Source: Candidatus Gastranaerophilales bacterium (GTDB taxonomy: Bacteria > Cyanobacteriota > Vampirovibrionia > Gastranaerophilales > JAILCC01). Taken from it: a stretch of DNA of 64,000 nt. The DNA lies in NCBI GenBank assembly GCA_045598245.1, contig JAZLLQ010000035.1, forward strand, positions 5,579 through 69,578, read 5' to 3'. Shown here piece by piece: positions 26,533 through 29,500 of the stretch (position 1 is its first letter; each line of letters opens with the position of its first letter). Position numbers and translations under genes: made by a program. A model generated the notes under the pieces. That model saw nothing but the letters and a program-made list of their open reading frames with translations, did no database searches and was not told the origin of the DNA.

Positions 26533-29500
26533 TTAGTCAAGCATTTTGGTATTTATTCTGTTAAAATATTTGAAAAATACATCAAATGGTACATCTACAG
26601 TTTTATATGAGTCGTAAGGATTTTTTATAGTCACGGTTTTGTCTTTAGGATTAATACTTTCTATTGCGTATTGGTGAGAATTTGATAAACCGTATTTATC
26701 CTTGTCCTCTTGGGATACTTTAGGCGTATCATAGATAACGGTTGTCATTACCATGTTGTTTGTTTGAAGTTGACTGTATAGCGTTGACATTACGCTGTAA
26801 TCTGTCTTACCCTGAATACCAATGGTTTGGTCGCTGCTTTTCTTACCGTATAAATCATCAAGAACCTCGTGACCATATCCGCCGTTTACCCAATATTGAA
26901 TAGCCATATCCATATCGACATCACTGGCATTTGTTACCTTACCTGATGCTGAGATTGCTTTTGACAAAGCCTCACTGTAATCTTCTTTGATGTCTTTTGC
27001 CGATAATCCGCTATTGCTGACTTGAGCAAATTTTGCGAGTGCGTATGCCTGTTCAAGCATTGCAAGTCCTTTGCAAGTATCGGTTGCGTGGTTAGTGCCG
27101 ACATTTTCGGTACTGCTTCCGTTCTTGTACTTGCCATCTATTGCCTTGAGTTCACCGCCTTTAAATGTTACGGGATAACTTGATACTCCGGGGAATGTTA
27201 CCGTCATATCTCCATTAGAGTCTTCTTTGAACATTTGAAGAAGTTTTGCTCTGGCTGCCGGATTCTCCATTGAATCAATAAGTGTTGTTGCGGCAAAGAA
27301 ACAATCTTCAAGGCCGTTTTGTTGAACGAAGAACCTTTCTACCGGTGGGAATAACTCAAGATAAGTTTCCGCACTCATTTTTAACTCTACCATTTTACCC
27401 GAATCGTTGACGTATAATTTTCCGTCTTTTTCTGCTACCTCACCTGTTTTAGTCTTTGATGCCAATTCCGTAAGTGACATTTCTGAACCATCTGTAATCA
27501 TTTTGCTTTTAATATAAGCATCTTTACCTTCAGGTGCATTTTCCGCATCTGCGAGAATTTGTGCATCAGCTAAAATTTCATTATTAAAATCCGTAATTGA
27601 TGATGTCATCATTTCTTTTACATTGGACATGAAGTTGCCCCAAGTATCTTTTGCTTGTCCTACTTCAATAAGAACTTTTATTTGTTTTAACTTATTCAAT
27701 GCATCAGCAGTTGAACCGCAAGAATTTATAAATGATTCAATTTGCGTTGTTGATAAACCTACCTTATCTTTTATTTCATCACCTAATTTAGTTACTTCTG
27801 CTTTTACTTGTTGTTCTTTTAATTTTTCATCGTTAGCTTCTTCGTATGCTTTCAATTCAGCTTCGGTAATACTGCCGTTTTTATCGGTATCAATTGTTCC
27901 CAAGCCTATTTCAAGTAATTGTACGCTATCAGTAATATTCTTATTCAATTCTCTTGCAGCTTGTATCAACTGTCTTGCAAGAGCAGTAAATTCTTTTTTG
28001 CCGTCTTTGTCGGTTTCTATTAATTTGGAAACAAGTTTTTTAGCGTCTGAGATGACAGTTGAACTTGCATCAGGAGCAGACGGGTCAGGATTGCCTCTCA
28101 ATGCGGAAGTAATGTATGCCATTGTAACTTCCATATTGTAGTCTTTATCCGATTTGCTTCCTTTTGAAATTACTTGAGATGTTTTAGGATCTCCGTTATA
28201 TATTTTATCTTTGGAATCATTTACAATTGTTGAATTTGTACCTGAATCCCTGTTATATATTCTGTCTGCACCGGAACCACCGTCAATTCTCGCTTTATCA
28301 CCTGCGTTGATTAAGGCATCATCACCATCTCCACCTTGTAATTCAGAGTTTTGAGAGTAATTATATAAGTAATCATCACCGGTGCTGCCGTTAATTTTTG
28401 AATTGTCGGCATAGTTAAATACGGATTTCAAGGTTACATTTGAGTAAAACTTAATATCTGAACCTTCCATTTTTACAGCTGAGTTATCATTCGCTTTAAT
28501 GACAACAATTTTCATATTAGAAGCATTGATAGTCACTAAGTTTTTGTAGAATGAAGTTTTGACTGTATCAAAGTTGTCTTCATTAGAGTATGCACGGAAG
28601 GTTACTCCGTCAACCGTAAATTCTCTGAACAACTTATAATCAGGGTCATCACTCGGGAAGCCTTTCATTTTAATTATGTGTTCGGTATCGTCACCTTCTG
28701 AAGGAATAATTTCTTTAACGGTACCTTCTGCATAGTTAATGGAATCATCGCCATCTCCGCCGTCAATAGTAGCATCGTCACCATAGTTAACGATGGTATC
28801 ATTTCCGCCTTCACCGTTCAAGCGTGCATTTTTACCGTAGTTAACAATAATATCATCAGCATCACCTGCATTAATCACGCAGTTGTCGGCATTAGGATTG
28901 TTTTGAATATTATCGTTGCCGAAACTTCCGTTAATTGTTGAGTTTTTAGCGTTATTTGTAATAGTATCGGTTGTAACGGCATTAGAATTGAATTTTACAT
29001 TTTCACCATTAATAACAACATTCTTGCCATTTTCACCGTAACCCAATACATCTATTGTGCAATTTTTACCGTTAATATTGATAGAACCGTCTTTTCCTTC
29101 GGTAATTTCACAAGAGCCTTTACCTTTTAAGTATTTAATTTTGAAATTCATTCCGCCGATACTTGTTGATTTGGTATCATATTTGGCTTCTTCTTTATCA
29201 AAAGCAACGATTTTATCAACTGTTGTACAAATTTTTTCGCAAATTTCTCTGATTTGGAATAATCTTGATGTCTTTTGCTTAAATTCTTTATTCATTACAG
29301 ATACGTCATATCCTTTTTGTGCAATATGGAGTTTTAAGTATTCTGCCATATTGTCGATACTTGTTCCGTTTCTGTAATCTTCAATACAACCAATAATTGC
29401 TTGCTTTATTATTTCTTCATCTTCAGCAGTTAATCCGAATGATGCTTCTCTAATCATGGGAAGAATGACGCTGAACATGTCTTCTTCGGCTTGTTCAAGT

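Follow-up and report, generated by a model that had tools for sequence, protein, structure and literature searches.

A Divergent Calpain-Family Peptidase Domain at the C-Terminus of a Large Modular Protein from an Uncultured Gastranaerophilales Bacterium

The DNA analysed here is a stretch of 64,000 nucleotides from contig JAZLLQ010000035.1 (the window, to which all positions refer), and its host is an uncultured gut bacterium of the Gastranaerophilales, a non-photosynthetic relative of cyanobacteria. On the minus strand of the window lies a gene for a protein of 1187 amino acids (aa), and we are highly confident that the C-terminal part of this protein is a real but divergent calpain-family domain with a papain fold. 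The best overall explanation of the results, to which we give a probability of about 0.8, is a modular protein in which the divergent peptidase is joined to accessory calcium modules, acts outside the cytoplasm and is accompanied by a small partner protein. The C-terminal 305 residues would form a compact peptidase of family C2, cleaving peptide bonds by the papain/calpain mechanism with Cys932 as the nucleophile, His1141 as the general base, Asn1159 orienting the histidine and Gln926 forming the oxyanion hole. Calcium dependence, if any, would be exerted via a pair of RTX-like beta-roll modules and a single EF-hand loop. The protein would be secreted or located at the cell surface, where the protease could act on foreign substrates, on surface substrates or on itself, and our best guess for the small protein encoded downstream is a cytoplasmic partner that would keep the protease harmless or competent for export.

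Three strings, QQNGLEDCFFAATTL, NSHQYAIESI and TIKNPYDS, lie in this order within the last ~270 residues of the protein. A first-pass annotation of the DNA, made from the sequence alone, had read them as three calpain-like motifs in the correct order near the C-terminus; direct translation bore out this reading and also the codons given for the Cys and His motifs (Table 1). With respect to the extent of the domain, its C-terminal location stood, but the start of the conserved domain is close to residue 883 (window 27450), some 37 residues ahead of the one that had been proposed. The description "giant protein" did not hold, because 1187 aa is large and not giant, though homologues reach 7567 aa. 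An exact look-up found no record of the 1187-aa protein or of its homologue P0002.

Considering that three short motifs could stand in calpain order by chance within a low-GC, low-complexity protein, the single sequence was weighed separately from its family. Against Pfam Peptidase_C2 (PF00648), the domain alone scored 19.2 bits (E 6.7e-4) and the whole protein 14.6 bits; the gathering score, 23.8, was reached by neither. The alignment spanned only the His/Asn half of the domain (profile positions 149-243). A phmmer search of PDB sequences with the single domain returned only noise, and the AlphaFold model built from the single sequence was unusable, with a predicted local distance difference test (pLDDT) score of 43. 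The domain's low Pfam score and its partial alignment count against a calpain assignment, and the sub-threshold score, the phmmer result and the poor model are what a chance resemblance would have in its favour. Peptidase_C2 was the sole protease family in Pfam matched by the domain's own sequence.

The evidence that carries the assignment came from the family. An exhaustive HMMER search with the domain through 1.84 billion cluster representatives, the clusters being defined at 50% identity, retrieved 543 representatives at E<=1e-3, of which 246 reached E<=1e-10. These homologues bear the textbook calpain motif QGxLGDC[WYF], and in nearly all of them the calpain-like domain stands at or near the C-terminus of a large protein of up to 7567 aa (P0135). 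Another giant member, P0049 (5512 aa), is encoded at positions 5001-21539 of locus L007, P0002 (4875 aa) contains four complete calpain-like domains about 930 residues apart, and the domain is internal, not C-terminal, in P0015, P0026 and P0037. When an alignment of 28 family domains (A1) was used as a profile against all PDB sequences, the 18 best matches were calpains (calpain-9, E 2e-11), one more calpain scored below E 0.01, and the alignment lined up the RxxxxQGxLGDCW, LLEKAYA, GG, HAYS and NPW motifs. PF00648 was matched individually by 23 of the 28 members of A1 (best E 1.7e-10), and its gathering score was exceeded by the full-length proteins P0002 (51.7 bits), P0010 (40.1 bits), P0012 (29.3 bits), P0026 and P0035. 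Moreover, hhalign aligned A1 with the protease core of human calpain-2 over 182 columns with 97.9% probability (E 3.8e-13). The numbering of the calpain-2 sequence used for this is in agreement with the ligand list in PMC4631099. So, the Pfam check that the first-pass annotation had proposed turned out positive for the family and negative for the protein's own sequence. Other searches were less productive: a word-indexed homologue search found nothing with the domain as query (the protein itself was also missed) and only five proteins with the A1 profile, and a GTDB genome scan gave no match with the domain and, with P0009 as query, only the contig of P0009's own metagenome-assembled genome (MAG). 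Phage and plasmid collections searched by tblastn with the domain contained no match, and a mobile-element origin is accordingly not indicated.

Given A1 as input, AlphaFold2 produced a model of high confidence (pLDDT 88.2, predicted template modelling score 0.87). The predicted model has the two-lobed papain-like fold and resembles the protease core of calpains; Cys932 is placed at the N-terminal end of a helix, and His1141 and Asn1159 are placed on consecutive beta-strands, which in the model is the papain-fold arrangement. In a Foldseek search of the PDB, each of the 30 best matches was the protease core of a calpain (probability 0.99-1.00, E 4.6e-7 for the best), while other papain-fold enzymes, such as streptopain, C39 peptidases and phytochelatin synthase, appeared only at E>=5e-3. 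The structural check suggested beforehand, a predicted papain/calpain fold confirmed by Foldseek, was thus borne out. Two features of the model speak against the assignment: the template modelling scores of the Foldseek matches were only ~0.45-0.49 with a root-mean-square deviation of ~7 A, and the pLDDT falls to 68 around the Cys loop. Besides the core, the family has its own conserved N-terminal element, consisting of three strands, a helix and an invariant LFP motif (LFPP motif), which was modelled with a pLDDT of 94-98. The model also matched, weakly, the structure of a Citrobacter rodentium CdiA-CT entry/toxin domain (PDB 8ssk_A, E 2e-3, 130 columns), which probably reflects shared elements of the papain-like core. 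Since the family profile searches, hhalign, the alignment-based model and the Foldseek ranking all pointed specifically to calpains, chance resemblance was rejected, and we regard it as practically ruled out.

The calpain-family domain is quite probably an active cysteine endopeptidase that uses Cys932, His1141, Asn1159 and Gln926, a proposal based on the strict conservation of these residues across hundreds of divergent sequences. The invariant columns of A1 are Q44, C50, E133, H259, N277 and P278. When 127 domains were aligned, Gln926, Cys932, Glu1015 and His1141 were conserved in all of them and Asn1159 in 126, the remaining one having Asp, a replacement that active calpains tolerate (PMC4631099). 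Gln926 precedes Cys932 by six residues, the spacing found in papain and calpain, and Asn1159 lies in an NPY context where calpain has NPW. It could be argued that the domain is a catalytically inactive calpain-like binding module, or a papain-fold enzyme of another kind such as an amidase or transglutaminase, because among calpain homologues roughly 10% are not peptidases (PMC4631099), the Cys motif of the 1187-aa protein reads QQNGLEDCFF and so deviates from QGxxGDC[YW], the consensus in the family, and the model is less confident around the Cys loop. However, non-peptidase calpain homologues are defined by the loss of catalytic residues (PMC4631099). The 1187-aa protein retains all four, as does practically every aligned relative. 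In clan CA, Asn as the third residue and Gln as the oxyanion residue characterise peptidases rather than transglutaminases. We therefore consider an inactive or non-proteolytic domain very improbable.

Table 1. Window positions of the calpain-like gene, its domains and predicted functional residues, and the small gene downstream.
Feature	Position	Strand	Basis
Modular protein gene, whole	26533..30096	minus	ORF translation, 1187 aa
Calpain-family (MEROPS C2 / Pfam PF00648-like) cysteine peptidase domain, residues 883-1187 (~305 aa)	26536..27450	minus	homology, fold, conservation
Gln926, predicted oxyanion-hole residue	27319..27321	minus	127/127 conserved; aligned with calpain Gln
Cys932, predicted nucleophile	27301..27303	minus	127/127 conserved; aligned with calpain-2 Cys105; N-terminal end of model helix 47-62
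Glu1015 in MLEQAYA, counterpart of calpain LLEKAYAK motif	27052..27054	minus	127/127 conserved; aligned
His1141, predicted general base	26674..26676	minus	127/127; start of model strand 259-267; aligned with calpain HAYS motif
Asn1159, predicted His-orienting residue	26620..26622	minus	126/127 Asn, 1 Asp; aligned with calpain NPWG motif
N-terminal ~80-100-residue domain, possibly a targeting or secretion module	29797..30096	minus	conserved in closest relatives only
Beta-roll-like module 1, putative calcium-binding, residues 379-455	28732..28962	minus	GSFGNDNIQ, AGDADDIIV, GEGGNDTIV, GGDGDDSIN, 18-20 residues apart
Beta-roll-like module 2, putative calcium-binding, residues 564-620	28237..28407	minus	GSTGDDYLY, GGDGDDALI, GGSGADRIY
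Single canonical EF-hand loop DTDKNGSITEAE, residues 736-747, in helical linker	27856..27891	minus	pattern; EF-hand_7 E 0.0023-0.0029
Conserved 112-aa ORF, candidate partner (inhibitor/immunity protein or chaperone)	26162..26500	minus	32 nt 3' of calpain-like stop codon; GAAGGA ribosome-binding site

The core of calpain-2 binds calcium at two sites, site 1 with the ligands Ile89, Gly91, Asp96 and Glu175 and site 2 with Glu292, Asp299, Gln319 and Glu323 (PMC4631099). In the hhalign alignment, Asp96 of site 1 was faced by Phe and Glu175 by Cys in the 1187-aa protein. For site 2, only about 25 residues (strand, helix, strand) follow the NPW/NPY motif in the family and the alignment stops at NPW, so the segment of about 30 residues from Glu292 to Glu323 has no counterpart. 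Judged by these alignments, the domain has not kept the calcium switch that is built into the core of classical calpains, which agrees with the general absence of the core calcium sites from bacterial calpain homologues (PMC4631099). Any calcium dependence would therefore have to come from the accessory RTX-like modules and the EF-hand.

These accessory modules lie N-terminal to the protease. Two mutually related modules (residues ~331-470 and ~521-640) hold seven RTX-like nonamers at a spacing of ~18 residues, whereas 2000 shuffled sequences contained 0.18 on average and two at most. A local match to NCBIfam Ca_rpt_SMc04171 (E 5.7e-8) covers residues 563-627, and the repeats of the orthologue P0009 matched NCBIfam RTX_toxin (E 1.8e-9), Ca_rpt_SMc04171 (E 1.9e-18) and the RTX region of a lipase of the type I secretion system (T1SS). 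The EF-hand loop lies in a helical linker formed by residues 651-882. Several results count against these assignments: the repeats of the 1187-aa protein gave no match to Pfam HemolysinCabind even at E<=1, the EF-hand scores stayed below their Pfam cut-offs (EF-hand_7, 18.3 versus 30 bits; another profile, 13.5 versus 25.4 bits), and neither Pfam nor the pattern scan found a second EF-hand in the protein, which leaves the first unpaired. The modules are real as sequence patterns, and their binding of calcium is putative. The fusion to calcium-binding modules claimed in the first-pass annotation thus survives in the form of seven nonamers and one EF-hand loop, although both kinds of module fall below the Pfam thresholds; its further remark that the calcium-binding hardware differs from that of eukaryotic calpains is in line with the unconserved core ligands and the RTX-like type of most of the putative accessory modules. 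Regulation of the protease by calcium, through the accessory modules rather than the core sites, is a tentative proposal that we consider somewhat less probable than its opposite. EF-hand matches just under the Pfam cut-off were also seen at the N-termini of the distant members P0015 (residues 35-57) and P0026 (residues 36-82), and the calpain-like domain may have been associated with EF-hands repeatedly within the bacterial family.

Whether the protein acts outside the cytoplasm is, in our estimate, an even question. The argument for it is that RTX-type and EF-hand modules normally fold only at extracellular calcium levels. Export by a recognisable route was not apparent: neither a signal peptide nor a transmembrane segment was found in the 1187-aa protein (maximum 19-residue Kyte-Doolittle mean 0.99). 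No T1SS C-terminal signal was recognised at the C-terminus, which is a folded protease domain, and no T1SS genes were present among the ~25 window ORFs that were scanned, a subset of the total; together with the missing signal peptide, these results tell against secretion. The N-terminal domain, a possible targeting or secretion module, was common only to the closest relatives P0003, P0005, P0006, P0009, P0011 and P0046. A double-glycine leader at the N-terminus was considered and dropped, because conservation of the candidate "VPG" does not extend to P0009.

The main substrate of the peptidase might be the protein itself, cut either in cis or by another copy, so that the N-terminal part with the putative calcium-binding modules is freed or matured once exported. 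The peptidase would then resemble the cysteine protease domain in MARTX toxins and would not be chiefly a protease for external substrates. This would suit a domain that is always part of large modular proteins, that is internal in some homologues and present in four copies in P0002, and that is the most conserved part of proteins whose N-terminal regions vary. On the other hand, we identified no cleavage-site motif or conserved linker, and calpains and the one characterised bacterial homologue act in trans to our knowledge (for context, see PMC4631099). The computed results do not separate action in cis from action in trans. Self-processing as the main role is thus a minority reading, to which we would give perhaps one chance in five, and a protease that acts, outside the cytoplasm, on substrates not limited to its own chain is preferred.

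Directly downstream of the calpain-like gene is a small ORF of 112 aa, which probably is co-transcribed with it; scans for promoters and terminators found sites no more often than in shuffled sequences. Read by eye, the sequence of the small protein is probably helical. Homologues of 110-114 residues were found 10-39 nt 3' of the calpain-like gene in L001 (55% identity), L002, L003 and L007, the last of which encodes the distant 5512-aa member. A metagenome search started from the small protein returned one further locus, L008, in which the upstream ORF ends in a calpain-like domain (E 1.4e-61). The pair therefore occurs in six loci, including the window, and the other flanking genes differ among them. 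L005 and L009 were excluded from this count because their contigs end. What speaks against a general partnership is that the small ORF is absent 3' of the calpain-like gene in L004, L006 and L010, which represent more distant members, and that the 112-aa protein matched no Pfam or NCBIfam family and resembles none of the known inhibitors at a detectable level. In PADLOC it gave only borderline matches (DrmC, E 0.005; PDC-M02B, E 0.006), which were treated as noise, and a profile search of the PDB gave only chance-level matches (E > 1). The reading of the large protein as part of a defence system was dropped, since that protein has no PADLOC match.

In staphopain-staphostatin operons, the gene of a clan CA cysteine protease is followed by the gene of a cytoplasmic inhibitor of about 110 residues, and staphostatins are beta-barrels of family I57. 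By analogy with these operons, a partner role is proposed for the small ORF: both cases present a papain-fold protease gene followed, as a conserved pair, by a small gene whose product lacks a signal peptide. In contrast to staphostatins, the 112-aa protein looks helical from its sequence and shares no detectable similarity with them, and inhibition is hypothetical. That the small protein is an inhibitor, an immunity protein or a chaperone is accordingly a speculative suggestion, which we rate at roughly one in four.

The same gene arrangement would be expected of a polymorphic-type toxin-immunity pair, in which the C-terminal peptidase is the toxin delivered to competitors and the 112-aa protein confers immunity. 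Such a pair would combine a C-terminal enzymatic domain with a small conserved gene 10-39 nt downstream, as observed, in a two-gene cassette found in varying contexts. Papain-fold peptidase toxins and bacterial calpains fused to WXG domains have been put forward as secreted toxins (comment by a reviewer in PMC4631099), and the weak Foldseek match to the CdiA-CT structure points the same way. Nevertheless, it is the C-terminal domain that is conserved rather than polymorphic and the N-terminal regions that change, the family scans detected no known trafficking domain (RHS, FHA, WXG, PAAR and similar), L004, L006 and L010 lack the small ORF, and nothing in PADLOC or in immunity families was matched. 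We consider a toxin-immunity pair unlikely, more so than self-processing, and return to a secreted or surface-located calpain-family peptidase as the preferred explanation.

Calpain homologues are found in a minority of bacteria; 67 were known in 2015, of which 14 were from Cyanobacteria (Rawlings 2015, PMC4631099), and one had been studied biochemically as of that survey (PMC4631099). In bacterial calpains, the peptidase domain is mostly C-terminal and signal peptides are few (PMC4631099). Glr4140 of Gloeobacter violaceus carries eight HemolysinCabind repeats N-terminal to its calpain domain and was suggested to be secreted on that ground (PMC4631099), and 13 further cyanobacterial calpains with C-terminal CysPC domains have been described (Veselenyiova et al. 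2022, PMC9380684). Our literature search found no paper that links calpains with Melainabacteria. The first-pass statement that such domains are uncommon in bacteria was right insofar as a minority of bacteria have them, but the layout of calcium repeats followed by a C-terminal calpain domain has been known since 2015 (PMC4631099). The 1187-aa protein agrees with Glr4140 and the cyanobacterial CysPC proteins in having a C-terminal peptidase in a long multidomain protein, conserved Cys, His and Asn, core calcium sites that are largely absent, repeats of RTX type (RTX-like in the 1187-aa protein) N-terminal to the protease and no signal peptide; furthermore, its host belongs to the Melainabacteria/Vampirovibrionia, the sister lineage to the Cyanobacteria. 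It differs from them (Glr4140 being compared by its published description) in its more divergent domain, which falls below the Pfam cut-off and lacks the site 2 segment, and in its conserved N-terminal three-strand element with the LFPP motif. It also has repeats that HemolysinCabind does not recognise, an additional EF-hand loop and the small downstream ORF.

Eukaryotic classical calpains (the cores of calpain-1, -2, -3 and -9; PDB 1KXR, 1MDW, 6BJD and 2P0R) were the best structural and profile matches of the domain. They share its fold and motif order, and both are linked with EF-hand-type calcium binding in the same polypeptide, putatively so in the 1187-aa protein. In contrast to them, the 1187-aa protein has neither the calpain-III/C2L domain nor the penta-EF-hand domain, the site 1 ligands of its core are not conserved, its putative calcium hardware is N-terminal and mostly of the RTX beta-roll type, and it may well be extracellular, whereas classical calpains are cytosolic. 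MARTX and other RTX toxins with an internal cysteine protease domain (CPD) of family C80 resemble the 1187-aa protein in that a large protein with RTX or RTX-like repeats carries a cysteine protease domain that could process the polypeptide. However, the MARTX CPD belongs to clan CD, has a caspase-like fold and is activated by inositol hexakisphosphate, and MARTX proteins have C-terminal RTX repeats and a T1SS signal, while in the 1187-aa protein the protease occupies the extreme C-terminus.

The surroundings of the gene were also inspected. Upstream of it, on the same strand, are the housekeeping genes for SMC, ScpA, ScpB, lysyl-tRNA synthetase and a nucleotidyltransferase. The lysyl-tRNA synthetase shares 80% identity with one found in a Candidatus Gastranaerophilales MAG and 89% with the enzyme of MAG RUI575; this latter MAG also encodes P0009, the homologue of 2331 aa, under the annotation "calcium-binding protein". 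The GC content of the window is ~33%, and that of the related loci 29-37%. Directly 3' of the two-gene cassette is an ORF of 564 aa (24328-26022, minus strand) with only a sub-threshold match to Mre11_C_bact; judged solely by position and orientation, L001 lacks an ORF of similar length in the same orientation after its cassette. In L002 (359-2499) and L009 (281-1060) the calpain-like gene adjoins that for triose-phosphate isomerase (plus PGK in L002), which hints at a second, partly conserved position of the cassette, unlike that in the window. Some 3 kb beyond the calpain-like gene in the 3' direction, the other strand encodes a 280-aa protein (22999-23841, plus strand) with a prepilin-type N-terminal cleavage/methylation motif (TIGR02532) above the cut-off.

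Farther away, a protein of 1033 aa (59421-62522, minus strand) gave no Pfam match. Ala, Gln, Lys, Glu and Ser are extremely abundant in it, some stretches resemble coiled coils, the middle is hydrophobic and rich in Gly and Ala, and the tail is acidic; a marked local AT skew (-0.40) and a raised GC content (0.40) are due to its gene. Another protein without a Pfam match has 863 aa (5555-8146, minus strand) and one apparent N-terminal membrane-spanning stretch, and a superfamily-1 helicase of 1024 aa (AAA_11/AAA_12; 12695-15769, plus strand) ends in an MTES_1575 restriction-endonuclease-like domain.

Based on these comparisons, the 1187-aa protein is a divergent example of a kind of bacterial calpain that has already been described. 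It is not a new kind of protein, since bacterial calpains with a C-terminal peptidase, including Glr4140, were reported in 2015 (PMC4631099). What appear to be undescribed are the size of the subfamily, the compact core and the conserved downstream partner gene. Current understanding is not overturned, and a known pattern is extended: calpains are usually thought of as eukaryotic, and here a divergent calpain-family domain is present in the non-photosynthetic sister lineage of the Cyanobacteria, as part of a family of several hundred sequence clusters that is mostly missed by current Pfam thresholds. Both PMC4631099 and PMC9380684 have argued for a bacterial origin of calpains, which makes this family relevant to the question of where calpains came from. 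The compact, naturally "calcium-site-free" calpain core would be useful for enzymology, and the small downstream gene is a practical lead, because it could encode a new kind of cysteine-protease inhibitor. A bolder view, which we consider rather unlikely to be right, would unite a dedicated pair (protease and inhibitor, toxin and immunity protein, or cargo and export chaperone), convergent calcium control by RTX and EF-hand modules, and a large unrecognised branch of calpains in uncultured low-GC bacteria. If it were true, the 112-aa protein would be a bacterial functional analogue of calpastatin with an unrelated fold, calcium control through the accessory modules would be convergent with that of eukaryotic calpains, and the 543-cluster family, some of whose members have four protease domains, would presumably be mostly gut-associated.

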